58,836 bases of DNA, filler included, from Dirinaria sp. TL-2023a (GCA_051941275.1; 3 parts of 3 records of this genome joined end to end with filler, not necessarily neighbours in it), one strand, 5' to 3'. Positions 19,332-47,062 are shown, numbered from the whole stretch's first letter. The notes: generated by a model from the letters alone, not told the origin. Program-made: numbers and translations.

Positions 19332-19564
19332 ACCATGGAATCTCCCCAAGAAAGGTTTGATTGAATTACCTGGGGAACTGGGTGTGCATTGATATTCTTA
19401 TGCTACCTCTATGCAAGGATACAACTCCGAAACTTTTTATGAAAACGAAATGTATACTTTAACGCGCAAATAGGTGGGTACCTTCCATAGTACCCAGGCT
19501 CGCTAGGTAGGTAGGTAGAGTACTGTAAGGTATAGTATGTAAGTAGGTAAAGTAAGGTATGGAC

Positions 19565-19664
19565 NNNNNNNNNNNNNNNNNNNNNNNNNNNNNNNNNNNN
19601 NNNNNNNNTTAATTAATTAANNNNNNNNNNNNNNNNNNNNNNNNNNNNNNNNNNNNNNNNNNNN
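19565..19664. other. Assembly gap with artificial linker
   Basis: N44-TTAATTAATTAA-N44, a palindromic linker giving stops in all frames. Confidence 0.97.
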
Positions 19665-21013
19665 CAAAACGAGTCTTGAATATGATGAAAGAGACAGTGA
19701 TCCCTCATATGAAGCCGAAAATGCGTACAAAGGCAAAGATGCCGGTTGCAGCGACTGTGTCAGATTCCGGGAGGGCAGCTTGAATGAAAGAGAGTATCGT
19801 GGTCATTACGAAATCTAGTTTCGAGACTGCGACAAGCTGAAAGCACGCCCATGCCGCCTTGCTGAAGCTCGAATCAAGCAGCGAGAAAAGATCACAATCT
19901 ATAGCGATGGCAGCGAAATCAGTTCATTGAAGTGATCTTGTTCGTTCGAACTTGAAGAGAAGTATATCAGCGATAATAGCGAAGGGAGCTAGCATTACAC
20001 TAAAAGAGAGGATGTTGACGTCAGACGTCAGTGAGAAGACTTCAAGCACGATTTGAAAATAGATCGATAGAAAGTAGATCACTCATTCCAGTAGCATCGA
20101 AGAGATAAATGCTAGTATGAAATCGATCATCGAAGTTCGATTGACGAAGAACCGGGGAGACATACTAGATTTTTGACAAAACCTGAACGCTTGATGCCCA
20201 TGAAACAGCCCCCAGCTCAGAAACCCAAGCACAAGTGATAATATAATCCGCCCGAAGAACCAGAGATACGTAGTTCCTTCTAAAACCAAGTCGAGTATAA
20301 CAGCACAAAGAGAGGGGATGAAGGTCAAGTTTCCCAGGTAGTCGACGCGCGCAAGTGCTTTCGTGCAGGATGATTCTCTATCGTATTTGACTCGCAGGAA
20401 GAGAATAATCATCATTACCAACGCTGCACCTGAGATTGATAAATTGATGTAGAAGACCCAGCGCCAGGCTGCTTCGGCAAGACCGCCGCCGACTAAAAAT
20501 TCCAAAGTGGTTCCAATAGCTGCCGTTGACAGCATGAGGTCAAGGTATTTGCCGCGCTCTCGTAAAGACATCAGATCACAAGTGATTAGTTCGACCAAGC
20601 CAAAGATACCACCAGAGCCTAGACCTTGAACGATCCGACCAGCGATCATCATGGCAACGTTCTTTGATCTGCCCGCTATCCCGCTCCCAGCAGCAAACAG
20701 GGCGACGGAGATTATCATCGGCATACGACGGCCGAAAATGTTGGATACTTGACCAACTAACGGCTGCACCGCAGTCGACGAAAGAGTTGGCAATTCACAC
20801 ATACTGCCGCTGTCCTCCTACAACCCTCGTGATGGAGGGGAGAGCTGTCGTGACTATAGTTGAATCCAGAGCCGATGCGAATGAGACCAAATACAAGATG
20901 AGATAAACGAGCCAGAATCGCCAACTGTGTTTGTCCTTTTGGTGCTGACCTGAATGAGTATCGACTGCTTCACCACTAGAGGATTTATCGTTTGATGGAC
21001 TTGTGTCAGCCAT
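19665..21013 (-). pseudogene. MFS drug:H+ antiporter (14-TMS type) pseudogene with RIP-like damage, truncated at the gap
   Basis: SALDSTIVTTALPSI, GQVSNIFGRR, GRIVQGLGSGG, LRERGKY, WRWVFYINL motifs. Trp->TGA stops at 20795-20797 and 20083-20085, a frameshift just after YV*IANSF, and many P->S and G->E/D changes. Confidence 0.9.
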
Positions 21014-21477
21014 TTTCAGTATAATGACAGCAAAAGATCAGAGTAGAAGAAGCACTCAAATGCTGAGCTGACGAAACACCAATGATGGTCAAAAGCTCTC
21101 TATTATTTGAACAGAGTCGAATGGGGGAGTGAGGCTCCATCTACGCCAAGACGAAGACCCGAACTCCCAAGGTTGAAAATCATTTTGACTTAATCAGCTA
21201 TGCAACATTCACATCAAGAGAAAATACAAAGATAGAAGATCGGTCCATGCACTTGGAAAGTGACATGTTCATGCCTTTATGCGAGAGTGCACAGACATTA
21301 TTGGAAGCATGAGGTGGCTTTTGATTCTACTTGATAGGGTTAGTTTGGGTTAATCGGATTCCTACCCATCCTTCAACATGAAGACTCGCCCAGCATATCT
21401 CCGCCATGATTTGACAGCTGCCTTATTTTGCAAATTTTGGATCTCATCGCCCTGTCCAAAACGCTTCGCGTGAAGTC

Positions 21478-22544
21478 TCAGAACATTGGTTTGTGCCCCA
21501 GTGCCTCCGCCTGTAGCTGAGCCGCAACGCCGGCACCAGCTGCAGCCCCGGTGAACAACGCGTTCGATGCGATCTTGAGCGGGGAGCTCGTGTCGCCGGC
21601 GGTGAAAACGCCGAGGAGACTAGTCTGGTAAAAGGGCGGAGTCACTTTCAGGTCTCCCTGCGGCGTCAGCTCCAGACCAAGCTGCTGTGCGAACGTCCCG
21701 CTAAGCTGGCACTTGGGTTTGTGCGCGAGGAAACTTTCGACGGCGTGGGTGCCATCGGAGAAGTGCAGGATGACTTGGGCTCGGTGAGACCCCTTTTCCA
21801 GGCGGGCGATGGGGCGAGAATCGACCTTGATCTTCGATTCCGGACCGAGAGCGGTGACGAGGGAATCGCGCAGGGCCTCGTAGCCGTCCGTGTAAATGGT
21901 GACCCAGTTCGGGGTGAGCTGGAGCGCGTTGCGGGCAAAGTGCATCGCGGGTGCGTCGTTGGCCAGATCACCCACGGCTAGAACGCCGGAGGAAGGGCTG
22001 TCTCTCTCTTCGTACCCGTGACAGAAGAGACAATGGAATCTAGTCGTATGGGGGAAAAAAAAAACCAAGCAGTCAGCCACGGTCGTGAAACGGAGTATGC
22101 CCCCCCGGGTACGATGGACGAGATGTCTTCTCCTACTCACATCCCACTACCCCAGCAGTCGTCATAGCCTTCGATATCGGGATAGATGTCCAGCACTCCA
22201 GTCGCCAGGATGAGCTTCTTGGCTACCCATTGCTGACCATCTTCGTCCGTAGCATGGAAGACACCGTCATCCGTCTTCTGGACCTTGTCCACCGCGCGGT
22301 CGTGGAACTGGATGGTTTGATACCCGGACTTAATATTCTCTTTGGCAGCGGCTCGGAAATCGTTCGGATTCTTATGATCCCAGGTGAGCACAGTGTGGAC
22401 GTGGCTAGCGGCACTGTTGCGGTAGTGGCCGGAGTCGAAGACGACTGCGGTATGACGCTGACGCGCTAAGGTGAGCGCGGCCGTTAAGCCCGCTGGCCCG
22501 CCGCCAATGATGAGAGCGTCGAAGGGGGGTTGAGCGTATTCCAT
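21478..22544 (-). CDS. FAD-dependent thioredoxin-reductase-like dithiol oxidase, GliT-like, one intron
   Basis: DALIIGGGPAGL, LILATGV, spliced G-IFHCLFCHGYE (CXXC) and GVFTAGD. Frame intact. Confidence 0.88.
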
Positions 22545-23401
22545 GATTCTGACGATGGATAGCCAAGTAAACTCAGTCGTGTCAATGACTCGAAATCCTC
22601 CAACGCTGTTGCAGCTGTGCGATAGCAGTGACCGGTTGGGGAGGTAAGTAGTCCTCCGAGGCCGATGAGGCTACCGTGTTGCATTCATAGGCTGTTGCAG
22701 CAAGTGTGCTTGAGTCTCTCCGCTCCCTCCTTCTACCTTAGATTAGCGCTCGATCGCACATCTGCTCTGTCTCCTCTAGTTTGCCTTGAATTGCATAAAA
22801 GAGGCTGAGGTTGTTTGACCATGTGAATAGTCGAAGTGTACTTAGGTCCCTGTGCTTCCCCACGCCCGGCCAGTACTCGCAAAAGTATCTGTAGTGTGAT
22901 ATCCACCACGTTGACAACCAAAGTTAGCCATTTGAAGTAAGAATGCAAAAGTTATGGAACTTTATGCATCCAAATTTATGTTTATAGCAAGCCTCACCCA
23001 AAGTGTCCGGGTTTTTTTGCAACCCACGAGCTACCTAAGGTAAGATTACATAATCAACCCTTGGATGGAGTGCCAAGCCATCTCCGCCGCCAGACGTGGC
23101 CAACACCAATGCGGTTTTTGTCAGTCGGATCGGCCCATCGTTCTGGCTTTGCCAGTTGCCCTGCATCAATATTACCCATTACCAAGTATTGCCCCTTTCC
23201 CTTCTCGTTCTTGCGCTTACCTAACTTAATGGAACAACGCGTACTCGTACCTTTACTTTTTCTTACGCCAGCTCGAGAGGCCACCCTTTTCATGGATTGG
23301 CCATGACCTGATGCTACTTCGCCCATAGCTATGCTATACCCACCTTCACCTTAGAACTCATCAACTCTTTCCTCTCGTCCAATCTTCTATTACCTCCTAC
23401 C

Positions 23402-25252
23402 ATGTTTCTTCCCCGGTTCCAGACCAAGCTTCTTGCCCTAGCCATCATCGTTGGTCTCCTTTATCTACTCACAACGCAGGGGGTAACACCTCGAACGCCA
23501 GCTACTTTTTCCTATCCATTCTCACACCACAATGCCACTTCGGATCCCTCGCCGCCCCTCGTTCCTGCTACCCCCAGCGGTGACGAGAAAGAAGCGACGG
23601 AACCCGAATCCAAACCTCAGCCTCTTAGCCCACCAAAGGCACCCAATACTCCTGTACAGCAGGATAGCCGGCCTAAAGAATCGAATGAAGCCAAAGGTTC
23701 ACAGACGGCCGTCCCAAGTACCAAAATCCAAGCACCTCAGTACACTCCCCTGCCGATCGAACCAGGAATCCCCAAAGCAACCTCAAGGCCCGACACCACT
23801 AAAGCCGCTCATGTCATGAATCAGACTTCCAAAGCCAACACTACAGAGGGACAAATCGATTTTTGGAAAGAGTTCGCGCCTCTGCTGGCGTCTGCTGTTC
23901 CGGATTGCCCTCCGCCAGAGCGATTGGGGAAGGCCGAAGCCCAACCATTCAATTATAAGCCTACCGAGCGATACGATGTCCTCTCCATGCCGGATGATGA
24001 CATAGCAAAGATGAAGGCGGCTCATGAGAAGTTCCTAGCAGGTCTTCATGGCAAGCCTGCTGAGCTGATTTATACACCTGGAACCAGAGGTCTCGTCACA
24101 ACCGCAGGCGGCTCGTACCTTCCCGTCTTTGCCGTGTCATTACGGATGCTCCGGCGAACGGGAACGACACTTCCCATGGAGGTTTTTCTTGCCGATCAGA
24201 AGGAGTACGAGAGCTATATCTGTGACCATGTTTTCCCGAAGCTAAATGCCAGATGTGTTGTTCTGTCCGATATTCTGGACGCTGCCCCGCACGCAGTCTC
24301 TATTTCGCATTACCAGTATAAAGTTTTTGCGATGATATTTTCCTCTTTCGAAGAGGTGTTATTCCTTGACTCCGATGCATTCGCACTACACGATTCGGAC
24401 CAACTTTTCACTTCCGAGCCCTTCACTAATCATGGATTAGTAACCTGGCCTGACTACTGGGCTTCTTCAGCTTCTCCAATGTACTACAAGATCGCTGGGC
24501 AGCCGGTTCCACCATTGTCGATTCGTCAATCTACTGAGTCGGGTGAGTTGCTTCTCAACAAGAACACCCACACCAAATCATTACTGCTGGCAACCTACTA
24601 CAATTATTATGGCAGCCACTATTATACCCTGTTTTCGCAAGGCGCGGCCGGAGAAGGCGACAAGGAGACATTCATCGCGGCAGCATACGCGTTGAATGAG
24701 ACATTCTACCAGGTAGCAGAACCGGTCAAGGCGATCGGTCATGCAACAAGCAAGGGTTGGCACGGTTCGGCCATGGTTCAGTATGATCCCATGGAAGACT
24801 ACAATCTAACCCAGCATGACATCTGGCACAATAGGGACAAAGATGCCGGAGGAGCATCCCCACCACGACCGTTCTTCCTCCATGTGAACGTCCCGAGACT
24901 GAACCCTGCCAAGGTTTTTGATCATGAAGAGCACACTACGAACATTAAGGGCGAGCCACAGCACCTATGGCAGGGCGATACTATCCATGCACTGTTTGGT
25001 GGCGACGTCGAAAAACAGGTGTGGGAGGAGGTGAAGTGGGTCAGCTGCGAGCTCGAAAATAAATTCGAAACCTGGAAGGACGTAAAAGGATTGTGCGATA
25101 AAGCTACCAAGTATTTGCAAGGCGCGTTTGGAAGCTCAGGAGAACAATCTAAGGAGCCGGAGAAGCCCCTTGCCAAGCCTGCGCAAGAGGCCAGCAAAAC
25201 GAAAGAGGAAGCACCGCATCCCTTCGGAGCCTCAAGCGAGAAGTCCACGTAG
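23402..25252 (+). CDS. Alpha-1,2-mannosyltransferase, MNN2-like (GT71), type II membrane protein
   Basis: N-terminal TM and Pro/Thr stem, RGLVTTAGG, LRMLRRTGTTLPMEVF, FEEVLFLDSD (DXD), WPDYW, ESGELL, QGAAGEGDKETF. Confidence 0.9.
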   Translation: MFLPRFQTKLLALAIIVGLLYLLTTQGVTPRTPATFSYPFSHHNATSDPSPPLVPATPSGDEKEATEPESKPQPLSPPKAPNTPVQQDSRPKESNEAKGSQTAVPSTKIQAPQYTPLPIEPGIPKATSRPDTTKAAHVMNQTSKANTTEGQIDFWKEFAPLLASAVPDCPPPERLGKAEAQPFNYKPTERYDVLSMPDDDIAKMKAAHEKFLAGLHGKPAELIYTPGTRGLVTTAGGSYLPVFAVSLRMLRRTGTTLPMEVFLADQKEYESYICDHVFPKLNARCVVLSDILDAAPHAVSISHYQYKVFAMIFSSFEEVLFLDSDAFALHDSDQLFTSEPFTNHGLVTWPDYWASSASPMYYKIAGQPVPPLSIRQSTESGELLLNKNTHTKSLLLATYYNYYGSHYYTLFSQGAAGEGDKETFIAAAYALNETFYQVAEPVKAIGHATSKGWHGSAMVQYDPMEDYNLTQHDIWHNRDKDAGGASPPRPFFLHVNVPRLNPAKVFDHEEHTTNIKGEPQHLWQGDTIHALFGGDVEKQVWEEVKWVSCELENKFETWKDVKGLCDKATKYLQGAFGSSGEQSKEPEKPLAKPAQEASKTKEEAPHPFGASSEKST

Positions 25253-26099
25253 GAGCAACGAGCGTACGCGGTGATAGCTTAGCTGAACCAGCCGATGCCG
25301 AGTCCCGGCAAAACTCACAAAGCAGCAGCACCCCACCCCCTTTCGACGACTTTAGACGAGTACTGAAAGGGGGTTGGCTTATGAACAAGCGGTACAAAAG
25401 CACCGGCGTCGTTCCGGCCAGTCCAAAGCATTATGTAAATACAGGCATTACAGCGTCCTGGAGGTCCCAAGAATTTTCCATCTATGGAAGGATTCCAGGC
25501 GGTCAGTATTCCCCTATGGTTAAGTCCGTATCCTATACTATACCTCCAGGTACTTTGTTACATTAGGGTCGAAGGCACTGTGGCGACTTGGGGATCTGGA
25601 CGAGACGATGAGCTGACGATGTGCGGATGACGGCCAAAATCTCTCCATAGTCTGGGGCTTTTGCCCTGGAGGGGATAGGACCATGTTTGCAGGACAGTCT
25701 GCGGCTGTATCCAACTGATTAAGGACTGCCGAGAGTCTCGGTCTGAAATGCGAAAAACTGTGAATATTATCATTAGTGTTCATCGCCTTTCTGGAAATGG
25801 CAAGGCCCCATTCTGTCGATTGTACAGCGATATCATCTCAGCTTCTGTACCCAGCCAACCGCAGCTTCAGCGATTACTGATTTCCTTTCTAATAAATTGT
25901 ACTGTACTGCTCACCAGCCATATCTTTATCATATTGAGGATTTTCACCGCTAATCCCGTCTCCGTCCCGTCACTTTCCACCTTCCTACTCCGGTAAGACT
26001 GGACATTGTGCCCACTCTCGGCAGGTACCGCTTCAGAAGTACAAAACTTCACCGTGCACCTGTTGTCCTTCCTGGTTTTACCAGCAAACCTTGTGCAAG

Positions 26100-28389
26100 A
26101 TGCGCTCTCATATGGTGATAGCTTACACCATCTGGTTAGGTACACTACTTCGTACTAGGCTTAGCAGCGCTACTGTGCAGTTGGACGCGCGCGGCCATGG
26201 AAAGGACAAGGGTTGTGACAAGCTTGGGGCTGTCGCATCTGAAAGCGCTGTTTGCAGTAAAATTGGGGTTGAATTGATCGAACAGGGGGGTAATGCGGCT
26301 GATGCTGTGCGTTGACTTGGATTCTTCACGTTATGTCTACCATTACTGATGATCGGTTTCCAGCTTGTGGGAACTCTCTTCTGTGTCGGCGTCATTGGTA
26401 GGTAGTTCTTGGTTCTCCAGCTTAGCTCCTATACAATAAGTCAGAAGCTCGATCACTCAATTCGTCAAGGGGAGTGCTTGTGCAGAACTCGATCATCAAA
26501 TGGCCGCTCGGTTGAATGACCGCTGAGTGTCCAAGACGTACAGATTCTTACAATCCATAGTTCTCTATAGATTTTTGCAAAACTAATCTGGTCAGGAAAA
26601 ATCAAAGTTGTTGAACTATGAAATGCATGACATCTGATGGGCAAAGTGAATGATTGCTGACACGCGCTATAGGGATGTACCACAGCGGCATTGGTGGAGG
26701 AGGCTTTATGCTTGTCAGAAGCTCTAACGGCTCTTACGAGTTCATTGACTTTCGCGAGACTGCGCCTGCCGCGGCTTTCCAAGACATGTATGAAAACAAT
26801 GTTAATGCATCGCTATATGGCGGTCTCGCAAGGTATTAGGTAGCCTCCAAATGAGCTTGCTTTGAGCTGAGTCAAGAGTCCAGTGGAGTCCCTGGTGAGC
26901 TCCGCGGAACAGAGCACCTCCACAGGAATTATGGCAAACTGCCTTGGGCTACCGTTATTCATCCGGCCATCAACCTCGCCCGGTACGGTTTTACTGTAAC
27001 CAAAGACCTCGTCAACCAAATGAAGGCCGCTACCGAAGGGGAAACGGATTTCCTCGTGGAAGACCCCAATTGGGCCATCGATTTCGCTCCCAACGGCACG
27101 CGTGTGCAGCTTGGCGAAACCATGACGCGAAAGCGTTACGCTGACACTTTGGAGACGATTTCCCAATACGGTGCTAATGCATTTTACACAGGCGCCATTG
27201 CTAACGCGACTATCGCCGCTTTGCAAGCTTCTAACGGCACGATGACGTTAGCAGACCTGAAGAATTATTCGGTGGCAATCAGGAAGCCGGCTCAGATCAC
27301 GTATCGAGACTTCAGGCTTACGGCGTGTAGTGCGCCTAGTAGCGGCGAGGTTGCCTTGAGTGTTATGAAGACTGTGGAGGGATATCAGGGTTTTGGCGAG
27401 GCGAGCTTATTGAACTTGAGCACCCATCGTTTGGACGAGGCTATCAGGTTTGGTTACGGCGAGGTAAGCGATCTATCTGTGAGGGGTCGATCATGTATTG
27501 CATTACTGACAATGCTATACCAGCGCGCCAATCTCGGTGATCCTCTTTTCGTTCCAGGATTGGATGAGTATCAGGCAGAAATGCTCAATGAGACTACCGC
27601 TGTGAGGATCCGCAGCCAGATCTCGGATACTCGCACGCAGAACGTCTCCGCATATCAGCCTACTGGTTTGATAGGAATCGCAGAGTGAATTCCCCCCCCC
27701 CCCACCACCCTTACCCTTTGGTTTCTCTTTTGGCATCCTTTTTATTCATTCTGACACAATTTGCTCGAAAGTCTACGTCTTTGGCTCGCTAACGCTTCGC
27801 CAGCCACGGCACATCCTATATCGCCACTGCTGACGCATCGGGCATGGCCATCTCCATTACCTCCACCATCAATCTTCTATTCGGTTCGCAGCTTATCGTG
27901 CCGGCCACAGGTGTGATTATGAACAACGAAATGAACGACTTCTCTATCCCAGGTTCCTCAAATGCCTTCGGTTACGTGCCGTCTCCGGCAAACTATGTTC
28001 GACCTGGAAAACGCCCACTTTCTTCAATCTCCCCAACAATTGTGGAGCACTTATCAAATGGTAGCCTTTATTTCATTGTCGGTTCTGCGGGCGGTAGTCG
28101 TATCATCACCGCCACCATCCAAAATCTGTGGCACGTATTAGACCAAGGCTTGACAGCCGAGCAGGCTCTAGCGCAACCACGGTTCCATGACCAGCTAGAG
28201 CCGAATCAGATCAGCTTCGAGTATGCGTATAATAACGAGACCGTGGCCTATCTTCAAAGCTTAGGGCACAATGTGACGTGGATTGCGCCGGGCCAATCGA
28301 CGGCCCAAGCTGTGCGGCTATTGCCAAACGGAACTTTTGAGGCAGCGAGAGAGCCCAGACAGAATGCAAGTGGGGGATTTGTCATTTGA
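26100..28389 (+). CDS. Gamma-glutamyltranspeptidase (secreted or membrane type), multi-exon
   Basis: GAVASESAVCS, GGNAADA, MYHSGIGGGGFM, IDFRETAP, GVPGEL, nucleophile segment HGTSYIA, NNEMNDFS, PGKRPLSS, GSAGGSRI. Start codon approximate. Confidence 0.92.
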
Positions 28390-29304
28390 CCTGTTTGCGT
28401 CTCAATGTAGATGTTCAGTAGTGTGAAAGGGAATGTGTAGTCTGGCTGGAGTAGTTATTGCAGACGTAGCCAGCGACCACGAACGAAGTAGTAGTTATAA
28501 AATATCTAGATAAATCACCCGATTTTCGGGAACGAACAATCAGAAAAAACACTTCATGGAAATCTGGCTCGGCGGTCTTATAGCGTCAGCTACTGTCAAC
28601 TCCAATCAAACATCGCATTCCTTCTCCTGATTTTCTCAAAGTAGGAGCGTTGTCACTCACTTCACTTTAGGGTTTCACCTTAGGGTAATTGGCCAGGACC
28701 TCGGACGGAAGGTTTACCGAATGTTGACAAACAATCCTCGTCGCTCAGGCCAACATGTCGAGATCATCAGGCAACCAAAGCAACGGCTTACCGCTGGTCC
28801 CTCGATGGTCGAATCAACGCACCCCGTCATGCATCAAAGCGCAGTTGTCACTGTATCTGATAGGCTTGCACTATCACCACCAATCATCTGCGTCGAGATA
28901 GAAGGGATTGAGTCACATGACTGCATACGTCGCTCGCGCCAGCCTACTATGTCTGCTCCTTCGAACCGCTTCCTCTTTTCTCTTCTTCACGCTTCTTCAG
29001 AAGAGCCGGCCGAACACACCACCGCGACTAATCTCCTTGCAGATTGTCGTGCGCAGAGTCGCTTCAGGAACCCTCTCAGTCTTCTTTCGAGTCCTTTCTC
29101 GATCGAAGCACAGAGAGGAACCCGTCCTGAAAGGCTTCCGGAGGTCTCCCACCCATGCAACGTGCGTGCGAAGCGTCACTTTGATTTCCGATTCCCCACT
29201 TGTTACGCTCTTTTACACGAACTCGGGTGCCTTTCAGTCAATACCGTCGCTATATCTTCGCCGAGTGATACCCATCTTCGACCACAGACGCCGGTACGAT
29301 CAAG

Positions 29305-30334
29305 ATGTTCAAGCGCTCTTTTGCATCAAGAGATCGCGCGGGCAAGGCAGTCAAGCCGGTAAAGAAGACCTATCGCGAGCATACGAAGATCAAGATGCAG
29401 CAGAAACTGGATAGTCCGCCGGTCGGGAGGTGAGTCTGATCCTAGCCTCGTAGATGGCGACGTTGAGAGGGCTGATAAAGTACGGCGATCGCAGTACTCT
29501 CACAAGCGCCATAGTCACTTTGGTCGTGGGTCGCGATCAGCGCCTGTTCGCTGCTCACGAGGATATCCTGTCTCTGTCCCCCTTCTTCGCGGCTGCTCTC
29601 AAAGGCCAGTTCTACGAGGCTGCTACGAAGAAGGTGGAGTTGCCCGATGAGTATGTGCAATGTCCAAAGGTGCTAGGCAGGCACTAATACATCTCTCCAC
29701 AGAGAACCCGAAGTTTTCTCCTCCGTCCTCGAATATCTCTACAAGGGTGACTACTACCCACGCTTGTTGCATAACAAGCGTCGCAACTCTTGGGAGCTCG
29801 AAGACGCACAGGACCCCCTAAACCTTGGTGGCCGTGGGTCAGTCGAGTCTACAATTTACCATTCTGGTGTGGGCGGAGTCCTGCTCAAAGACACGGTCAT
29901 CTACTGCACTGCGGAGAAATTTGGCCTGGAAGGTCTTAAGCGCATTGCTCTTCGGAAGCAAGGCCTTCAGTCCGGTCTGGCAGTCGACGTCATCCTACGC
30001 TCCGCCCGCTTTACGTATGCCAATACGCCGGATACTGACTCGCGCCTTCGCGCTCATTACCTGGCCTTGATTATCCGGAGTCGCAAGACTTTCAAGAGGA
30101 GCGGAACCATGCAGATGGAGATGGAGATAGGTGGAAGCAAATTGTGAGTTGCTTGCAAGTCGCTCGAGAAAGAGCGTCTGACAATTGAATCTAGGTTTTT
30201 CGATCTGTTTGTTGCCCAGTGCAATTTTTTGGAGGACATCGTGGACATCTCGTAGGTTTCCCCATCCTCTTAAGTTTTGTCAAACCATTCTCACACGGTG
30301 GGCCAGTAACAAGAGTTCTCCGCGCACCATCTAA
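29305..30334 (+). CDS. BTB/POZ domain protein, multi-exon
   Basis: IVTLVVGRDQRLFAAHEDILSLSPFF...VELPDE/EPEVFSSVLEYLYKGDYYP...IYCTAEKFGLEGLK. GT-AG introns join the ORF fragments. Last exon SNKSSPRTI* is inferred. Confidence 0.85.
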
Positions 30335-34985: not shown

Positions 34986-37002
34986 ATGGCCGATGCGAGC
35001 ACCCCCAGCAACCCTAACTTACATAGCAGTCACCACACAGGTAAGAGGCTGAGACAGCTCTTGCACCCCAATGGCAGAAGGATTCAGTGAGTTGAATCCA
35101 TTCCTTACCCATCGTTATTCACGTTCTGCTAACGCTTCGCATAGTATTGCTGGATCCCCGGACGAACACGAAAGGCTCAAGCTGCAGCTTGTCACATCCG
35201 AGCCGGATCAAGACTTCGACGTCTGTGTCCATGGTTCACCCGAGCATCTTGCTGCTGTGCGAGAAATCCACTCGCATCAGGAGCAAAAACGGGAAGAGCT
35301 TCGGCAGCAGTTCCCAGATCAATACAATACTTTCGAAGATGTCCATCGTCAGCTCGACCTGCTCTCGAACGAGCTGCAGAGCCTGACGTCTCATGGGGTG
35401 TTCCTCAATGCAAGCTTCTCCAGATTCGGTTATGATGCTCATCTTCGGACTCGGGAACCGGACTCCTCGGCCAGTTCTACCACTGTGGGGAATCCGGCGG
35501 ACCTTGAAGAACGTGATTGGGATGCCGAGCGACAGAAAGGGACCGCTCTACGGTTTTGGAGGCCGCCGATCGTCCGACAATACTTCCATCGTGGTCTTCT
35601 GTGGCGTGCTGAAGCGACCGAAGAAGTAGCTTCGTTTGAGCTCTTTGTGGACTTGCTCTATGTTGGGATAATTGCCATCATTGGTGACACAGCAGCGGAG
35701 AACGCTACAAGCTTTGGGTTCCTTCAATTCCTGGTCACGTTCGTCTTGTCGTGGAAGATGTGGAACGACTTAACACTCACTATCAGCTGGTTTGAGACGG
35801 ATGACATTACCCAACGCATCGCGGTACTGTTTGTGATGATATGCTTATTCGGCTACACCCTGAATATCGTTGCGGCCTTTGATTCGACCTGGACTCAACT
35901 CGTCGCATTCTACCTTACTCAGCGGCTTTTCAATTGCGTCTACTATCTGCAAATAGCGTATCTACTACCCATGGTCCGAGGTAGCATGGTTTACTATGCT
36001 ACTGCCATCCTTGTGCCCAGCGCTCTATGGATTGGCAGCGTGCAGCTTGGGTATCCTGAAAGATTGGCTCTCGTCTGGGTGGCGATTCCGTTGGACCTTT
36101 TTGGACCGCTTTTCATGATCATCTTCACCCGACTTTCGTGGCGCAGATTCCCAAATTTTAAGGATAAGTTGAATCAATGGTTTGACTTCTTCCCTGCCAT
36201 CAACATAGAACACAAAACTGAACGGACTAATGCGTTTGTCACGCTGGTTTTCGGCTACTCCGTTGTGGCTCTCCTTTACCAAAATAAAGCGGCCTTTGGG
36301 ATCAATGCCTTCTTTGGCAAAGCTATATTAGGTCTGATCCAAGCCTTCAGCTTCAACTGGATCTACTTTGAGATCGATGCCTGCAATATTCACACTCATG
36401 CCATTCGGCGACACGTTGTTTCCTCTTTGGTGTGGATTACCGTACATTTGCCATTCATAATGAGTTTTGTTCTGGCCGGATCGTCCTTGTCACGGCTTGT
36501 GCTCGTCCATGATTGTGTCAACGCTGATCCGGAAACTCTTGGAGAGGACTATATTACTCGTTCGGAGCCAGAGGTATCGGTCGGGTCGCGTTGGTTCTAT
36601 TGCGGCGGCCTTGGAACGGCTTTGATTTGTATGGCTGCAATCTCACTGAGCCATGTGCACAAGAAGATCGAGAATCAACGGATCAATAAGAGACCTCGAC
36701 TTGCCCTTCGAGTGGCTGTAGGTATTGTTCTTATCTGCCTGCCTCTTGCTGAGAGCCTCACCTCATTGCAACTGATTTTCACGACTACTGGGCTGGTAGT
36801 ACTCACACTGATGTTCGAGGTGGGTGGCTCGACTTCCAAGAATAACAGCTTTTGGAGAGATAAGCAAAGATGTAAATACTCGGCCGAGTGTCGGATCCGG
36901 AAGAAGGCTGTAGAAGCCGCCTTGAAAGCCGGGGTCACGATTGATGTGACAGAGATAGTCAAAGATGGAGGTGACGAAAAGCGACTGTACGAACAAATTT
37001 GA
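34986..37002 (+). CDS. Low-temperature-requirement A (LtrA)-like polytopic membrane protein
   Basis: SFELFVDLLYVG, FETDDITQR, EHKTERTNAFVTLVFG, WIYF motifs and many hydrophobic segments. Probable true start at 34986 (MADAST...HHTGKRLRQLLHPNGRRIH) with an intron at about 35087-35145. Confidence 0.85.
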
Positions 37003-38104
37003 TTCGCTAATTGCAATCCGAGACCTTTCTCCACATTGAACCGCAGTTCAACAAGCTCGAACAGGAAACAGGCCTGCTTGTATTTCGATGCTCAAAAGCC
37101 TGGAAGCCGCTTGTACAATCTAATTCCGGGAAGTTTCTCGACGTTTGTCCACAGCTTCGATAGTTCCAATCCTGAAGAGTCATGCCGCAAGGTAATAGGG
37201 CTTGGTGTAGACTCCAACGGGCGACGAGCAGCATACTGTTTGAGAGTCGAGATTACTACTTTCATGTCAACAGCAATCGACATATCTACTCTTCTTAGTG
37301 CCTTCGAGGTGGACTGGCATGACAACGCGTGGCTCCGGAGGCCGACATCGAACGTATTTAGTACTTCTCGATTGGGTTGTTTGAGGACCCTCTGGTCCCA
37401 CGAGAATGTGGCCTCATGTGCTGGCGCACGGAGGAGGTTGCACTCGGGCTTCAACTGCCCCTTGCAAATCTCCACTGCCAATGCGTTGTGTAGACATGTT
37501 CCGGAAAGCAGAACTCGCTACGACTAAGGAAGATTAGGTTGTAGTAAGATCTTGAATTGAGTTACTTTTAAGTAGCACGAGTGGAAATGGATGAGATGAG
37601 TTAACTAGGTGACGCCTTGCTTCAGTGATGGAGGGTTTGAGATAGAACCACCTTGCATAGTGGGAATAGCGAGGATTCAACTTGTATCTCGCTGACCACT
37701 GACTGAAAACACTTTGTTGGATAAGGTACCTATTCGTGACATGTGATTTTCACTCTTTGTGGAAACATGGACGGCTGACCCAGATGGAAAGGTTACAGAA
37801 TCACTCAAAATGTTTTGAGTCGTTACGATGAATAAGAGCCCATTGCCTTTCTATCATGATCAAACTTAAGGAAGGTATATAGAATGAGTAAGAGTTGCTA
37901 AGAGACTAATGTACACATGCAAAGCTGGAGCTTGGATCGCCCGGCCAACTCATAATCTTAGGGAATGCCAATGCTCACATAGAAGGACTGTGTGTCAGTC
38001 TCCCACATAGCAATTGCAAATCAAGGACTCCTGTCCGTCCGATCATCGCGTCAACATGCCATAGGTGCGAGTCCATCAGCTGGTCGGTTGGGGATCATTA
38101 AGGT

Positions 38105-38599
38105 CTACTCCTCGTCTTCGTCCTCATCACCGGCCTTGGCCAAGTCAGCTAATGTCGTCGCGGCTTGGGTGCCAAAACACTTACCGCGTAGCTTGCCTTC
38201 TCACTCTCGTAACGCTCCTTGTCCGTCTTAGCCTTCTGCTCATACGGTTCGCGCTGTTTGGCGTTGAGTGCCTTCCAACGTTCACCGAGAACCTTTCCGA
38301 CTTGGCCTAGATTGGGACGCGTGTAAGCAACAGCTGACTGTCTGAGCTACACGGACTAGAAACATACCGAAAGTAATGCCCGGGTTCTCCTCTCGCACAT
38401 TCTCACGCTGCTCGTTCGCGAAGAACATGTACGCGGAGAGGCCGCGCTTGGGCGCATTGGGGTCTGAAAGGAGTTGCAGTCAGTGCACTGACATTACCAG
38501 ATTGGGGTGATGGAGCAAGAGAGGCTTACCCTTCTTCTTCTTGCCTCCCTCCGAAACGGCCTTAGCCTTGGTCTTACGGGTAGCCTTTTCCTTAGGCAT
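38105..38599 (-). CDS. NHP6: Non-histone chromosomal HMG-box protein Nhp6, 4 exons
   Basis: MPKEKATRK...KKKK / [32 protein letters not shown] / [15 protein letters not shown]...[14 protein letters not shown] / AGDEDEDEE*. Missed by the ORF track. Confidence 0.95.
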
Positions 38600-39208
38600 T
38601 GTCGATGCTGTGCATTCAACGGTCAGCAGACGCGCAAATCGCTATTCAGCGACACGTCAAAGTAATGTGCTTGACAACGGACTCGGTATGTGCCGTAAGG
38701 TGGGGGGGCCTGCTGAGCTCGTACGCGTTGGCGCGCATCATCAACAATGCGACCGAACAGCAAGTGGGAATAATCCGGAGCAGCATCGCTTTGATGGGCT
38801 CTGCTGCCCCAGAATGACAAGAGTTGGCAATGGGGGGGCAGCAATGCTTGCTGGTGTTGTTCTCAGGCCATGCTGTAGCCCAGCAGGCACGAGGAGCAGC
38901 GAGCCAGGCTGGAAGGAAAACAAAGCCAGCAACAGTGTAACGAGAGCAGAAGACGCGGGAAACGCGTGTGCAGCGAATCTGGGTGCGATGTTGTTTGGTG
39001 GTGGTGATTGTTAATGCTGAAACTTACTCGGTGATCGGGTGGTTCTGAGTATTAGGAGTACGCAGCAGTACGGTGTATAGAGGGAGTCTTTTGCGGGCGA
39101 CTGGATTTGGGCGGGAGATTTTGGGTGAGAGGAGGGAACTGAGCAAAAGGGAAGGCTGGGTCTCCCCATACATTATGTACCGCAACGCGGGGCAGCCCGT
39201 GCTAAGGC

Positions 39209-39308
39209 NNNNNNNNNNNNNNNNNNNNNNNNNNNNNNNNNNNNNNNNNNNNTTAATTAATTAANNNNNNNNNNNNNNNNNNNNNNNNNNNNNNNNNNNN
39301 NNNNNNNN
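39209..39308. other. Assembly gap with artificial linker
   Basis: Same N44-TTAATTAATTAA-N44 spacer as at 19565. Confidence 0.97.
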
Positions 39309-41454
39309 GTATGAGCACTAAATGTCAGATCTCGAGGACGAGCGAACAGAGGCGATCATAAAGAAAACTGCGCGAGGGGAAGCAAATCTCTGTTCCAGGT
39401 CCATTTATTCAATCATGTCTTCCAATTTCTTGTCCTTTTTTCAATTATAATAGATATCTTTCCTCTTGCATCGAGAACATATTATCACAGATTACTTTTA
39501 CTTACAGCATCTCTAAAAGGGAAAAAAAAGAGTTATTGACTTTGTTCATGACTCATCAAGTCATTACTGTAAAGAGTCGAGTGATACCGGCTACTGCTAG
39601 AAAATGGGATAGAATGACGAAAACGAAACCCTTTCCGGAGATGGTTCTTGAGTGTGCTGTTAGCTCTGGTGTTTTTTAGTCGAAGACGGCTCGTTGATTG
39701 GGAATTCCACCAACATCTTGGAGGTGAGGCGGGTATGGAGAGTAAATTATCAAAGAAAAGGGCAGCGCTGCACCGAGAAGCTGCAGAGAAGGGAAATTTA
39801 GGCAAGCGAGATTGGAGTTTCTCTTACTGGTTACACAGTACCTTCTGTTAGGCTGGCATGCGGTGCTGGTCACGGCTTCTAACAGGAACGGTCGGCAGAA
39901 GATCTTCGAACGAATTTTTTGTGCATTGGTTACTTTTCTGCCGTACCCTTCCTTCTTAGGCTTTTACCAATGTTTCTATCATCACGGAGACATGATATTG
40001 GATTTTTGCAGATTCCAGAATCTCTTCAGGCTCGAAACGTTGGAACTTTGGAACCAAATGCCCATGAAGACTAGGCATACAATCACGTATCCCTATAGTT
40101 AAGTCTCCATTGCTAGTTCACTGACAACGGAACATGGAAAGAGTGCCGGGTCATATGCAGAAAACTTGGCTGTAAAGGATGGGTACGCCATTCGAGCTTA
40201 TGACTACAATAATGTGACAATGACTGATTTAGTAGTACACTGGACCCTCGGTAGTCTAGAGCATAAGAACTTCCGTATCAGAGACTATCGCTGTTAATTT
40301 CCGAATCAATTGAAGCGGTAGCACTATTGGCAGACTTTACCTGATATAACTACTCATCCGACTAAGTACCTATGCTGAAAAAGCTTCCGAGTCTTCTGAA
40401 AAACAAAAAAGCCATGCCAATATCCCGCAACCCTAAGGTAAAGAAAACGCAGTCCATTAGCCTAGCCCTAATCAAAATCACGTGATCATATCAAGATCCA
40501 CCACCAAAACCCAGATTGGGAAGACGCGGGTTCGAATCAGCTTGATGTCAACATGTAATCCATTTTTCCCATACGCATATTGTCTAGATGTTAGGTATTA
40601 AAATAGAAAATGGCAAAAGCTCAGGGCCGCCTTTATTTCAGGCAGCGCTCCTTACCAAATCCCTCCTGGTTTTCCCCTGTACTATAAGGGCATAGACCAG
40701 ATTTCGGCTTCATTGGGATTTTTGGGTGGGCGCAATGTTTACCACTGCGCCATTAACCCGCTGAGATTTTGGTGGCGCAATTAATAATATATTTTTTCCA
40801 CAACCACATCTTATTTTCAATTAAATCTCAATTAAATCGTACATGACATTTGTAAGTGATAAAACTAGATTCTATTACTATGTTTCTGCAAGACATTTCG
40901 GGCTCGTTGCGCTTTCAGTGTTCAGCTGCAACAGATGTTATGCATCTTGTGCCCTAAAATGCCAGCCGTTGGAAGGCACATCGAACCATACTCAGAGTTA
41001 AGTGAGTAAGCCAACAATTCCATATTCTAAATCACTTAAGAGGGATAAACTTGGGCTAACATAGGTATTTGACATTTTCCCTACATGTGTGGGATTGTTC
41101 TTCAGGAAGTACTTTAGACTTCTATCACTGTCCAGTGTACAGAGTGACATTGAATTCATCAAAGAATTGAGTTCTTTGAGCGTCATGCCGACTTGCAGAT
41201 ACTTGAAAAGATCACCGCCATCCTCAGGAGACTTTGCTACTGGCTTTGATCGATGTTCACGATGCAATACAGGATCTCTACGCATATTCATTGTAGTAGC
41301 ATGGCTAGGTCATTCGTGGTTTAACATGCACCAAGAAAGAGGGCGCTTCATCAGCGTCCAAACAACTACCGCGAAAATCTCAGAGGCCAAGGATGTGGTT
41401 CTCACCAATTCTACAGGCTAGTACACCACCTCTGCCGGATCTAAGATTTTTCTG

Positions 41455-41770
41455 AGTGCTACTGCCGCCACACTACATTACTCCGCTGCCACACTATCTT
41501 CACTTTGCTGCTGTACCCTGTTGCCATTACTCTTTGTCATCTGTTCATGTCTCTCCTCTGTTATTTCTTCTTATGTATTCGAATTTAAGGAATCACCTAC
41601 TCGACGGTGACACTTTCGAGGAGAATACCTCGATCATCGCTCCATGAAACCGTCTTTGCTTGAGACTCGTACTCTATCAGAGGCAAAAAGTGATATACTC
41701 AAATTTGAGGCATCAACCAGGTGAGTACGAGGGGTGGCGAGGGTCGTGTGCCGACAGTGGGGTCCGGTAC
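41455..41770. mobile_element. Degenerate MITE-like element related to the 49464-49808 copy
   Basis: Left end CTACTGCCGCCACAC, right end GTGTGCCGACAGTGG (imperfect inverted repeat). Internal GACGGTGACACTTTCGAGGAGA resembles the reverse complement of TCTCCCTGAAAATGTCACTGTC in the other copy. Confidence 0.55.
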
Positions 41771-42495
41771 CTCTGTACAGGTTTAAGTCTTCCCTGATGG
41801 CCGTTATTTATCAATGGCTCTATGTAGACTGGCGAGTGCCCTTCTACGAGTGTTTAAGGCTTCCCTCATTTGTTGTCAAGCACCACATGATTACGATCCA
41901 TCTCAAAAATTGCGAGTTTACCCAAATACTGATTTCCATGACTCCGACATATACCTCATACAAAGCCTACTCATCCAAAGATTACCTCGGACTTTCTCTC
42001 AAGCACGCGTTTGCTATTTACACATGATCCTAGCATAAGTGGATTACACGGTTTGACACTAATACGAATACCCTGGAATTTGACGCGTTCGAAATTCAAG
42101 TCTCTATCTTGCTATCAATCAAGTTTTCTCCCCCCTGAGGCACATGTTACGCTGCTTTCCTCAAACTCTGAGAGCGTTCCCAAAACCTTCATAATTAGCT
42201 TCAGATACTGCTGACAATCTTAGTGTGACTGAGTCCTCACTATGAAGTCTCGGTAGACTGCCGTAGGATTCTGTATCTCTTTTCAATAATGACTCATTAT
42301 GCCAAACATTCATGCTCTCAAAACTACATTTTGAATGGAAACATATATTTATAAGATCAAAGACTCACCTCATCATCCATCCAAAGTAGGAAAATTGAAT
42401 CAATGCCAACAGTTCCGTCTTCGAACCACCTTTCAACTTTTGAGACTGTTTCATAGCGAATGCCAATAATCTGCTCACAAGGACTTACTTTGAAA

Positions 42496-44343
42496 TCACG
42501 TTCTGCGGCTCATACTATGTCCATACTTCCAAGATTCAACGACTGATTTTCTTTGAGGTTTGATTATAGTATAATATTCATTCCCAGACTTATAAAACCA
42601 ATTTCGCTCAGAGTTACTAGAACATAAGTACCTTCCAATCATCACAATGTAGGGCGAAAGACTAAACTGAACATTTAGAGCAGTAAGCTGAAGAACAGCC
42701 ACGCTTAGTGTGTTTTGATCTCGAAAATTCGTTTCGGTTCTTTCAAAAGAAAGCACATACACTATCTGTTCCCATAAACTCTTTTAGTGGTGGTCCTGTT
42801 TGGCTCTACGGATTTAGACCAAGTTCAGGAATAATCTCGATTTTGCTTAAGTAGTGACTAGTTTTCTGAAACGAGCGTTCACCATCTACCAAAAGATGGA
42901 CAACTGGGGAGATGTCAAATGCCACATACGAATTCCAATTCTTTACAAAAATACCGAGACTTTTCGGCTCTGAGCTAAATAAGCCCAGCGAATCTGGAAA
43001 ATGCTTTAGGGAATTGCAACTATGACCACAATAGTTAAGAATCACTCTTTAATCGACGTCTCGCTGGATTTCAAATTAATCATAATTCAACCCGATCGTC
43101 CGACAGTACCGCGTTGTCTGGTCATAGCTGGACTAGCTTTCGTTTTGCTGTAGATTCAGCGCTAGGTCTAGTCTATCTAAACCACAAAGCGGTGAAACTT
43201 GGCTTGATTTAGGCGTAATGCAAATAGCGTTCTTGAAATCGCGAACGTATATCTATCGTCGCTAGAAAATTCCAGATACAAGTATCTCAGGCGATAGCAC
43301 TCAATGTTACAAAGGCCTTCGTAGCCTCTCCAATAGGGATACTTTTCAGTGCCGACTCATTTTCCCATGCAAGAATGATCCGTGCGAAGAAGCGCGCAGC
43401 CTGATCTCCAAACTATGAGAAGAAACTGAGCATCGACCATACCGACCGCACCCATCATTGTCTTTGCCCACAAAGGCAGACAATACTCAGTAGCGGTTGC
43501 TAAAACGAGTAGGTAATGCCAACCGTCTTACAAGAATGAAAAGTCCAATTTCGCTGCTCGAATGAAAGAGGGCGGAGAGAATCAACTGTCCATATGGAGG
43601 AAGCAGAAAGAGCTCAAATCTGGATGTGGCAAGTTCTCAGGAACCTGTAACGAGTTCCATCTGAAGAGAAGAACTTCAATCTCAGAAATATGAGTGACCA
43701 TACACGCTTGTTGTACGTCGTCATCAACCTCGAACTTGACGCATTTTACATTAAGCTTGAAAGTCGCACAGTGGGAACTTCGCATTACGTTTTAAGCTGA
43801 CATGGAAAATATTCTGATCTTGATACGAGTCCCTCCTTTGCGATCACTTGAATGCAGTCCCATGATCTTCATTTTTGCGAACGCGTCGATATGACTCATT
43901 ACATTTATCACGCGATCGTGAGCCTTCATTTCTTAATTGACTTGATACATTAAATCTTTATCGTCAATCGACGCAAAATTTTGATTTCCGACGATTGGTC
44001 GCTCACCCAATGACTCGTAAAGCTTTCTTGACAAATTTCGATCATAAGGTCATGAATCTTCGATATGCTCAAAAGCGCTCTCTAACAATTAATTTTTGAC
44101 TGATGGAACGTTCACAGCTTCACGGCACATGCCCCATAGCACGGTATCAGGACCGGCGAAGCACAATGGGATCGAAAGACTCGAGAAAAATCTACGAGTT
44201 GCCACATGCACATCCACAGTACCACTCTTGTGAGCGCAGGCTTCGACAGCTTCAGTCATCAAAATGGCTATCTCAATGGCACAAGCCTCCTCAAAGCGAG
44301 CTGATGTATCTTGACAGGTCGATTTGACTTCGTCTGTCATCAC
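42496..44343 (-). pseudogene. Long decayed reading frame of unknown family
   Basis: ORF pieces 44089-44343, 43582-43785 and 42496-42762 share one frame, and 44343-43582 has only 4 internal stops in about 254 codons of AT-rich DNA. Confidence 0.5.
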
Positions 44344-44896
44344 GAAACGCTCTCAGAAGCAGAATCGCTTGGCTTTTTCCATCACGCGATTCATGTCGCA
44401 TTTTTGACTAGAACTTTATGATTTCATATAGGTATTTGCTATTTCCTCGCTAATCTATGCAAGTCTGAAACAGAGTTAGCTACATCAAAACAATTTCCTT
44501 TACTCTCGTCACTGTTCGGCGAAAATTGATGCATTTACGAGTTGTGACTAGCAAGAAACTTGCCGACAAGTTTGCTACAACGTAATGTGAGGATTGGAAC
44601 ATCTCAAAACATGGGTATTTGGAACAGGTAGAGAACTCGTATACGACGAGCATAGTCTTTCGATATATAGTACTAGGCTCGCTGAAAACATGCTTAAGTT
44701 GGCTATGATGCTAGTCAAGCGCGATGTCGTGGTACTCGTACAAAAAGACTACCGTAGTGAGGCAGTGATTTCTGAATCCTCACAAGCAGTTCTACACAGT
44801 CGTCTCGAGAATCCTTTATTATCGACAGCATAACATCTTTTGCGAACATTGCTTCAATGTTCATATCATCGTTCATGTCTCCTTCTGGCGTTTACC

Positions 44897-45864
44897 ATGA
44901 CTCTTTTAATCGAACTGCTACGTGAAAGCTCTTCTGAAGAAAAGGAAGAGAGAATGTCATGAGAAGAGATAATCGAGCATCTCCATCGAGACATTAAAGC
45001 TTGTATAAGCAAATATCAAATCCACATTTCCAAAGACGAGCGAGCCAACAATAACAAGCCTTGATCGGACCTTGAGATGCAACTTCTCTCGAAGACAAAA
45101 GAAGATGAGCAGACATGCCAAACGATCGAGAAGCAACTCGATCAATCGCAAACCAAAGCGTACGAGTGACCGACTGTAGCAAATCAACATTAATCCATCG
45201 TGAATCTGATCCACTCCCGACAACCAGACCTTCAAGTATATAAAAGCATCTGAGCCGTCGTGAAAACATACTGCTAAGCGGTTGAATCGAAATATTTTTA
45301 CGACTCGCAAATGACTCAGAAAGGTCATAACGGAGTCTCGAATCCTTTGTCGTCAAAAGACAAGCGACAGTCGCATTTTTTTGACAAACCCGGTAGATGG
45401 GCTTCAGGAATCGAGATTCTACGCGATTGGAAGTCAAGGAAGAATCTTTGGAGACGATGAAAGAGTGACTCGATCGGAATGAATTGTTCATATGAAGGAG
45501 ATTCCAACGCTCATACACAATACACTTCGAGGAGCATTCGCTTCTAGAGTTCAATAGCGAAGAAATTTCGTGGGAGCATATCGTTCCGAAATTCGATCGG
45601 AAAAGAAAATCATGTACTGGGAGGAGGTTAGAAGCTAGACAACGCTCTCAAGAGAGATGCAATGGGTAAGACTGTTTCTATTATCAACGAAAGAAATCAT
45701 CTCTCTTGATTCACGGTGAAAGATCAAACACTGTACGAGATGAAACAGAAAGAGGAGTGTTGGGCATATTGAATCTCTCAGCATTCGTGATTGATTTGAA
45801 TTGAACCTACATCATTGATGATCGAATGTTCATCGATTTCTAGAAAAAAAAAAAAAAAAAAAAA
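44897..45864 (+). pseudogene. Myb/SANT-repeat pseudogene followed by an A21 tract
   Basis: MS*EEIIEHLHRDIKACISKY...NKP*SDLEMQLLSKTKEDEQTCQTIEKQL, with TGA stops (44960, 45062) at the conserved Myb Trp positions. Poly(A) at 45844-45864. Confidence 0.55.
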
Positions 45865-46299
45865 CTCTGTTTTAGATTAACACATTCAAGGTTTACTATT
45901 AATTTCTGGCTGCCTTTTCATGACGCCAGCAAGTAACGGCGTCCGAAACGCCGTTGGCGTGGTTAGTTCCCTTGGAACAAGCAACTCTCTCCCGCAGGGT
46001 CCAAAAAGACTACAACAGAACACGAAAGGCTCAACAAGTGCAAAATCCACTTCGTTGGCATCCGAATATGCCGTCAAAATTACTCGAGAATGAAAAAAAC
46101 TTTGCCTGAGGGTCTATCGATGAGATTCAAACTAATAATGGCCAATCTAGTTATTGATCTTGCGAAGCACAGCATTCAAATCTGGAATAGCTACACGTCC
46201 TCCAATTACCCGTACACTGAGATGCTATCACAGAGAGCACACCGGTTGCGTTCCAACCAAAGCGGTACCCTACTTGCCTCCTGCTTTGTAGCTTTTCTA

Positions 46300-47062
46300 C
46301 GGACCACGGCGCAGCTATTAAAGAAAATCGCGGACGAACGGTTTTGCCAAGTGCTTGGATATCAGACCGAGACAACTTCCACCTCGGTAAAATACAATTA
46401 TCTTCGTCTCGACACAGCCAGTGACCAAAGAAAGATTAACGACAGGGCCATTGTCTGCTAGACAAGTTAGACGTCGCTGACTGTATGGGGACCTTCCTAG
46501 AGTCATACTCCCATATCGCGACCATCCCGAACATGGATAGCCACGTTCAAATGCTGCGATGCTATAGTACTGTATTCGGCCCGCAAGACCGATGGACAAA
46601 GATTCTAATTATCAAAGGAGAAAAAGACTCCACATATTGTTTTGCTTCTGGATCGCGCGGTATATACAGTAAAGCTTACGCGGAGGAGCAGGTATTACAA
46701 GCCAGTCGCTGTTCCCATTTATACAAGGTATGGAGAAGGAGTGTAATACAGTCTTCACGAAAGAGACGGCGCAAAGATAAAAAGGTCACTTCATTGCTGT
46801 TTAGAAAAAAGCAAGACTTCGTTTATTTGAAGATTGTGCCGCCGTCTCACCTGAGCTAAATTCTATAGAGAATATTTTGAGGTGGATGAAGGGGATTATT
46901 GCACAGCCAGAGTCGTTTCCAACGAAGCTTGACGATTTGAAACGCATTGTGCAGCGTTTATGAGACGAAACGGACCCCTGTATGTTCATAAAAGACATTG
47001 AAAACATGGCAGAGAAGCTTCAGAGCGTTATAAATGCTCGTGGTGTGCAGACCAAGTGTTAG
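46300..47062 (+). mobile_element. Tc1/mariner (DDE) transposase relic
   Basis: From about 46810: AVSPELNSIENILRWMK...DLKRIVQRL*DE...IENMAEKLQSVINARGVQTKC*, matching the SPDLNPIENxW...W...M..R...VI...G..T.Y C-terminus of Tc1 transposases. 5' boundary uncertain. Confidence 0.8.

Follow-up and report, generated by a model that had tools for sequence, protein, structure and literature searches.

The stretch of DNA described here, 58,836 bases from the genome of Dirinaria sp. TL-2023a (hereafter "the window"), contains two tracts that bear the signature of localized C-to-T hypermutation at cytosines followed by a second cytosine. One is a pseudogene for a transporter of the major facilitator superfamily (MFS) at one end of a sequence segment, and the other is a repeat-like tract of 3.9 kb located at 42000-45865. 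We assign a probability of roughly 0.55 to the proposition that these tracts, each 1-4 kb in length, were struck by a burst of C-to-T mutation from a defence resembling repeat-induced point mutation (RIP), mediated by a methyltransferase-type agent with a preference of approximately W-C*-C-W, where C* is the target. The transition bias, the CpC context, the action on both strands, the burst-like character, and the spatial confinement of the changes are all apparent in the data. The context tests on the MFS pseudogene thus bear out a first-pass annotation of this DNA insofar as it proposed localized, two-stranded C-to-T hypermutation that favours a 3' C, unlike the CpA type. That annotation counted three independent relics, however, and we find the signature in two tracts only.

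The main frame of the pseudogene, which is DHA2/TRI12-like, lies on the minus strand at 19666-20817 (Pfam MFS_1, E = 7e-20 on 20086-20817); it is truncated at the start of the segment, and three stops must be read through to follow it. The N-terminal part of the protein, located by tblastn with two homologs, occupies a different frame at 20759-20974 on the same strand, with one frameshift near 20790. All four in-frame stops of the pseudogene are TGA codons at conserved tryptophan positions (20795-20797, 20083-20085, 19924-19926, and 19705-19707, all minus strand); none is TAG. The closest named relatives of the relic are from lichen-forming fungi, including Alectoria, Kuettlingeria, Physcia, and Xylographa, and a Lecanoromycetes-like ascomycete is thus the probable source of the DNA. 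A metagenome scan, in which 80 loci were kept, provided no close DNA reference, the best locus having 44% identity. As the reference for a codon-by-codon comparison we used the 12 best homologs (55-66% identity) out of 681 proteins with E <= 1e-10. The peptide quoted in the first-pass annotation was found at 20002-20082 on the minus strand, and the codon changes that it had been said to contain (TGG to TGA, CCG to TCG, GGA to GAA, GGC to GAC, and CCT to TCT) were all recovered in the alignment to these homologs. As a separate matter, the relic is colinear with residues 33-470 of the homologous proteins and has no intron-sized gaps; should its orthologs have introns, it may have originated by retrocopying, which would make it a duplicate.

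The changes in the pseudogene are dominated by transitions of a single type. From the 384 codons compared, we used the 292 in columns with at least 75% agreement among the homologs and excluded the 92 in non-conserved columns. Among the former, 213 are unchanged, 72 differ and can be traced to one closest ancestral codon, and 7 remain ambiguous. The 72 differing codons yield 78 base changes, comprising 30 C>T, 27 G>A, and 21 others. C>T or G>A therefore accounts for 57 of the 78 inferred changes, the two strands being mutated nearly equally, and the remainder is within the usual divergence of the homologs. If the differing and ambiguous codons are taken together (79 in total), 53 are explained by C>T or G>A alone; the other 26, or 8.9% of the 292, lie inside the range of 2.2-16.4% that is observed when intact homologs are compared to the consensus of the rest. 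Because the non-transition divergence of the relic is thus equal to that of intact homologs, the transitions point to a burst and not to slow decay.

The identity of the base 3' to the target is the principal determinant of these changes. At sites where a change would be non-synonymous and detectable, 48 of 108 CpC sites were altered (44%), compared to 7 of 74 CpT sites (9.5%), 1 of 68 CpA sites, and 1 of 64 CpG sites (the last two both about 1.5%). The difference between CpC and the other contexts combined (9/206) has a Fisher p of 9e-18. Normalized for the available sites, the C-to-T changes are therefore neither evenly spread nor dominated by CpA or CpG, in agreement with the first-pass proposal. 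The bias toward CpC is seen in each codon-position class. Where the neighbour is not fixed by the genetic code (C at position 2 and G at position 1), 19 of 42 CpC sites were changed vs. 5 of 128 others (p = 1e-9). Further, at synonymous third-position pyrimidines, C precedes C in 11 of 37 cases in the relic but in 345 of 719 in ten intact open reading frames (ORFs) of the window (p = 0.04), whereas before other neighbours the relic and the intact ORFs are alike. The effect of the 5' neighbour is weak (A 19/67, T 16/68, C 11/87, G 11/92). The +2 base counts too, given that WC*CW sites were altered in 24 of 40 instances vs. 3 of 22 for SC*CS.

The distribution of the changes along the gene is markedly uneven. 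In bins from 20817 down to 19666, the altered CpC sites number 0/10, 4/14, 3/16, 5/12, 7/12, 11/14, 11/15, and 7/15; the first three bins differ from the last three with p = 8e-6. The hypermutation is densest at 19666-20400, with 73-79% of CpC sites converted in the hot zone, and the N-terminal piece at 20759-20974 is barely mutated (1 of 11 CpC sites). Such a gradient over 1 kb would not arise if a dead gene were simply exposed to a uniform background spectrum. Together with the abrupt end of the second tract on its right side, the gradient indicates that the hypermutation is confined to tracts and spreads into their flanks.

The two tracts, ~19666-20800 and ~42000-45865, are also the compositional outliers of the window. 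Their (TC+GA)/(CC+GG) ratio rises to 4.1-4.5 per 400-500 bp, compared to a window median of 1.3. The CC/GG rho is 0.74 in the first tract and 0.70 in the second vs. 0.91-0.96 elsewhere in the window, and the corresponding GA/TC rho values are 1.32 and 1.31 vs. 1.11-1.13. Neither TA (rho 0.62-0.63) nor CA/TG has undergone a shift of the RIP type in the tracts, and CpG is not depleted there (rho 1.01-1.11 vs. a background of 0.90-0.92). The ratio of TGA to TGG is 2.27 in the MFS relic and 2.26 at 42000-45865, with a background of 0.96-1.16. The first-pass description of the relics as TC/GA-rich, CC/GG-poor, and not TA-rich is consequently apt for these two tracts, but it does not extend to the third relic then named, a Tc1-like element treated below.

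The left edge of the second tract is approximate (about 41900-42200), but the right edge is sharp and coincides with a run of 21 A residues on the plus strand (A21, 45844-45864): each 100 bp contains 2-7 CC+GG as far as 45900, and the count is 15 immediately beyond. On the plus strand of 42000-45865, CC and GG are both depleted. All CC-containing trinucleotides are among the most depleted in the tract, and TCA/TGA, TTC/GAA, and TCT/AGA are enriched. We simulated the origin of this composition by mutating 12 background pieces of the window stepwise until they reached the GC content of the tract, a procedure that assumes a window-like ancestral composition. The context rates derived from the MFS relic gave the best fit, with a cosine of 0.99 for dinucleotides and 0.95 for trinucleotides and an L1 of 0.097. 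The fits of the other models were poorer (cosines in the same order): uniform C>T, 0.89/0.81 with an L1 of 0.167; 5'-C, 0.78/0.68; YpC, 0.73/0.62, and 0.23/0.12 for the MFS tract; a Neurospora order of contexts, 0.60/0.48 with an L1 of 0.287; 5'-T, 0.54/0.43; and CpG only, 0.25/0.20.

This second tract probably represents an element on the plus strand, either retroposed or repetitive. No reverse-transcriptase motif, target-site duplication, or terminal repeat was detected in or around 42000-45865, and six read-through translations covering 39309-47300 in six frames matched no Pfam family. When the DNA was divided into 900-nt chunks (72 translations), the sole relevant Pfam match was to DDE_3 (E = 0.029), other weak matches being chance-like. 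The tract contains no long frames interrupted by TGA only in excess of TAG or TAA controls, and the product of an ORF at 44997-45647 (minus strand) has no meaningful neighbour in a protein atlas, in which its best score was 0.78.

The detection of RIP in fungi relies almost wholly on AT-richness and on TpA/CpA indices. In the tracts described here, TpA/ApT is 0.61-0.64 and (CpA+TpG)/(ApC+GpT) is 1.26-1.30. Both values are negative by the thresholds of at least 0.89 and at most 1.03, respectively, that are given for RIPCAL (PMC2621366). Hence, the warning in the first-pass annotation that TpA-based indices would be blind to these regions was well founded. A different RIPCAL index, (CpC+GpG)/(TpC+GpA), is 0.37-0.38 in the tracts and 0.74-0.88 in the remaining window. 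It therefore separates the tracts from their surroundings and could be used at once for surveys.

We propose that the tracts would have arisen in a C-to-T burst on both strands that targeted C followed by C and, to a lesser extent, C followed by T. The agent may have been an enzyme of the DNA methyltransferase type, similar to RID or DIM-2, that selects its target by the adjoining 3' base. Such dependence is the hallmark of both RIP and Dim2-linked mutation, in which the preference is for CpA (PMC5496416; PMC8016269), and it thus favours an agent of this type. Such a mutator would act on duplicated or heterochromatic DNA, its flanking preference having moved from CpA to CpC. The MFS gene could have been partly duplicated, or the mutation could have spread into it from a repeat on the far side of the cut at 19665.

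Several observations weigh against this scheme. Neither tract has another copy within the window that blastn could detect. The evidence from the second tract is compositional only, resting on a window-like ancestral composition, and the Tc1 relic next to that tract is unaffected. Moreover, CpC is the least-used context in both of the RIP systems that have been measured by crosses (PMC5496416), and a kingdom-wide survey from 2025, covering 1,239 fungal genomes, describes RIP-like defences as sharing a preference for CpA (PMC12543289). Finally, O6-methylguanine damage yields the same order of contexts, NpCpC and then NpCpT (PMC12556801). A deaminase hence cannot be identified from the signature by itself.

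The strongest competing explanation, though an unlikely one, is that a silenced tract and its flank were methylated by a Dim2-type enzyme and that the methylated CpC cytosines decayed to T during vegetative growth. There is precedent in Zymoseptoria tritici, in which Dim2 promotes mitotic C>T mutation at CpA and CHH methylation is found at CC second only to CA (PMC8016269). The gradient into the neighbouring gene is likewise compatible with the spread of heterochromatin. However, as many as 11 of 14 CpC sites were converted in a single bin while transitions at other sites amount to about 1.5%. Since intact homologs have diverged just as far in other respects, slow decay would require a rate ratio of some 40-70 fold. 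Methylation of this kind would also have had to spare both the Tc1 relic and the adjacent non-coding DNA.

It is decidedly improbable that the tracts record chemical damage, in which alkylation of guanine to O6-alkylguanine would give G>A at 5'-GG and 5'-AG, as with SN1 methylating agents, where repair is poor. The order CpC > CpT >> CpA, CpG does agree with the temozolomide signature SBS11 (NpCpC, NpCpT), which has been reconstituted in vitro (PMC12556801). On the other hand, such damage is not expected to halt at the edge of an element, as occurs at the second tract, nor to generate a 1-kb gradient within one gene. It is also not expected to spare adjacent gene-free DNA: the non-coding region at 39309-41999, which adjoins the second tract, has a CC/GG rho of 1.01 and shows no depletion of CC/GG, and the shift in composition at 39309-41900 is best matched by context-free C>T drift. 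The Tc1 relic likewise lacks the signature. Separately, we note that 39309-41999 has a GC content of 0.43 and is depleted in CpG (rho 0.76), and that its history differs from that of the adjoining tract.

We regard as equally improbable the action of a deaminase that is not a methyltransferase (AID/APOBEC-like or a double-strand DNA deaminase), perhaps during the retroposition of an A-tailed element. The second tract and its mutation both end at the A21 run, as would result from editing before or during insertion. But the two strands are about equally affected, whereas the editing of cDNA would affect one, and the influence of the 5' neighbour is small, with poor fits for the models based on a 5'-T or a 5'-C. 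AID/APOBEC-type deaminases read mainly the 5' base (TpC, or the 3' C of CpC), and the clusters that they leave are strand-coordinated. The weak 5' effect, the mutation of both strands, and the poor fit of the 5'-neighbour models all argue against editing of the AID/APOBEC type.

An artefact of assembly or base calling is, in our view, slightly more improbable still. In that case, densely methylated C in certain k-mers would have been read as T in a long-read assembly, and the resulting errors would likewise be local, two-stranded, restricted to C>T, and context-dependent. Long ORFs are nevertheless intact elsewhere in the window (e.g. 1417 amino acids), and the MFS relic has a frameshift and non-transition changes besides. 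In addition, an artefact would have to account for 73-79% conversion of CpC in the hot zone with nearly none at CpA and CpG. Fungal 5-methylcytosine is rarely near-complete at a site.

Ordinary neutral decay or chance composition is very improbable: although AT drift does occur in pseudogenes and defunct elements and appears to have shaped the Tc1 relic and 39309-41900, the context bias (p = 9e-18), the lack of excess in other changes, the gradient, and the inferior fit of uniform C>T to the tracts all speak against it. Two other candidates were tried and rejected. The signature of ultraviolet light is C>T at the 3' C of dipyrimidines (YpC), a rule that fails in the MFS relic (TCA 0/15, TCG 0/12, TCT 2/14, TCC 14/27). 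Decay by methylation and deamination at CpG was discarded given the single change among 64 CpG sites and the undepleted CpG of the tracts.

The proposed RIP-like defence retains many of the hallmarks of its Neurospora counterpart, which depends on RID and DIM-2. In both, the changes are exclusively C:G to T:A transitions on the two strands and the 3' base decides the target; dense tracts on the kilobase scale have edges and spread into their flanks; and genes are inactivated by numerous missense and nonsense mutations. The two differ in that TpA is not raised in the present tracts and the classic indices are negative, as known here from the sequence of two tracts. The order of contexts also differs. 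In N. crassa it is CpA > CpT > CpG > CpC, and in Trichoderma reesei CpA and CpG are about equal, followed by CpT and then CpC (PMC5496416). The order found here, CpC >> CpT >> CpA, CpG, is inverted with respect to both.

Flanking preference is nonetheless known to vary among fungal lineages in repeat-directed C>T mutation. RIP-like variants include that of the MATE element of Aspergillus nidulans (CpG, then CpA) and that of Ty1 in Microbotryum violaceum (TpCpG) (PMC2621366). Unlike these two, the present context is CpC, and CpG is spared (1/64) and not depleted. The Dim2-linked process in transposable elements of Z. tritici (PMC8016269) resembles ours as a context-specific C>T mutator that is tied to a methyltransferase and acts on silenced repeats, but it targets CpA and was slow in an evolution experiment, whereas the changes reported here are at CpC and burst-like. 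In SBS11 (PMC12556801), the trinucleotide contexts NpCpC and NpCpT match those in our tracts; that signature, however, is genome-wide in treated human cells, and ours is limited to two tracts with defined edges. Among lichen-forming fungi, the transposable-element DNA of Cladonia rangiformis peaks near 16% GC, which is classic AT-rich RIP (PMC12542154), and Endocarpon pusillum is positive on TpA indices (PMC3897900). In RIPCAL, CpC>TpC is listed as a formal possibility only (PMC2621366). A literature search that did not extend to subscription papers or supplements recovered no report of CpC-dominant RIP or repeat-directed mutation; the matches for "CPC" or "CpC" that were opened used the term in other senses or only in a legend.

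These comparisons raise the possibility, to which we give somewhat less than even odds, that a lineage of lichen-forming ascomycetes has a RIP-type defence switched from CpA to W-C*-C-W. The case for a CpC mutator is drawn from one window. If it is true, the RIP machinery would prove able to evolve a flanking-base specificity at the opposite extreme, and nature would have provided a variant from which to learn how enzymes of the RID or DIM-2 type choose their targets. There would be practical consequences as well. Relics of such a process would stay at ~42-45% GC with no excess of TpA, and surveys based on GC or TpA would score the genomes that contain them as free of RIP, with the result that defences are undercounted. 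Some fungi scored as lacking RIP may therefore have a form of it that is invisible to the indices.

A frameshifted relic resembling Tc1/mariner elements follows the second tract at 45866-47062 on the plus strand. It has a weak match to DDE_3 (E = 0.0078, 16.5 bits over 27 residues), below the curated cutoff of 28.6 bits. When the frame at 45967-47061 was compared to 1.84 billion representatives in a full HMMER search, no matches emerged. Among 399 longer candidate homologs of the C-terminal frame none scored, proteins of 112-357 amino acids being outside that search. This relic does not have the CpC signature; its decay is generic. The details that had caused it to be included among the hypermutated relics are present, namely the sequence LNS, its serine encoded by TCT at 46862, and a TGA codon at 46961. 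However, its stops are mixed (5 TAG, 4 TAA, and 3 TGA in two frames that overlap at 46640-46899), its TGA/TGG ratio of 0.87 is below background, and its composition is best fitted by context-free AT drift (0.88/0.68 vs. 0.62/0.43 for the CpC model). In its own right, the Tc1-like relic is the part of the window nearest to the classic RIP thresholds, with a TpA/ApT of 0.90 and a (CpA+TpG)/(ApC+GpT) of 1.11; there may thus be more than one mutational history in this genome.

The stretch likely to have been taken for a Myb relic in the first-pass annotation lies inside the second tract at 44900-45289 on the plus strand. Its frame has nine stops, and five are TGA, but the label itself found no backing from profiles or homologs. 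As to identity as a Myb/SANT protein, a profile search showed no Myb family at E <= 10, nor did the scan of 900-nt chunks show one at E <= 0.1; none of 367 candidate homologs of the frame scored, and a search for a Myb repeat by regular expression gave nothing convincing.

The window was assembled from three pieces of ~19.5 kb, at 1-19564, 19665-39208, and 39309-58836 (19564, 19544, and 19528 bases), that are joined by linkers of the form N44-TTAATTAATTAA-N44 at 19565-19664 and 39209-39308. Features that begin at 19665 and 39309 are therefore cut by construction and not by biology. The GC content is ~0.50 across most of the window, and the span 19665-47062 consists mostly of ordinary intact genes. 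The long ORFs of the window encode ordinary eukaryotic housekeeping proteins, among them pyruvate carboxylase, clathrin heavy chain, eIF2-gamma, a mannosyltransferase, gamma-glutamyltranspeptidase, an LtrA-like protein, and a protein of the beta-lactamase family. Comparison of the window to itself by blastn revealed no diverged repeats.

Two further regions, 49200-50000 and 51400-52000, have a moderately raised (TC+GA)/(CC+GG) ratio of 2.1-2.6. The latter correlates positively with the CpC model only (0.76/0.59). It is near a minus-strand ORF of 540 amino acids at 50198-51817 that belongs to no Pfam family and contains a tandem pair of 57-nt units at 50673-50786 with 77% identity. The CpC process may have acted weakly or partially at 51400-52000.

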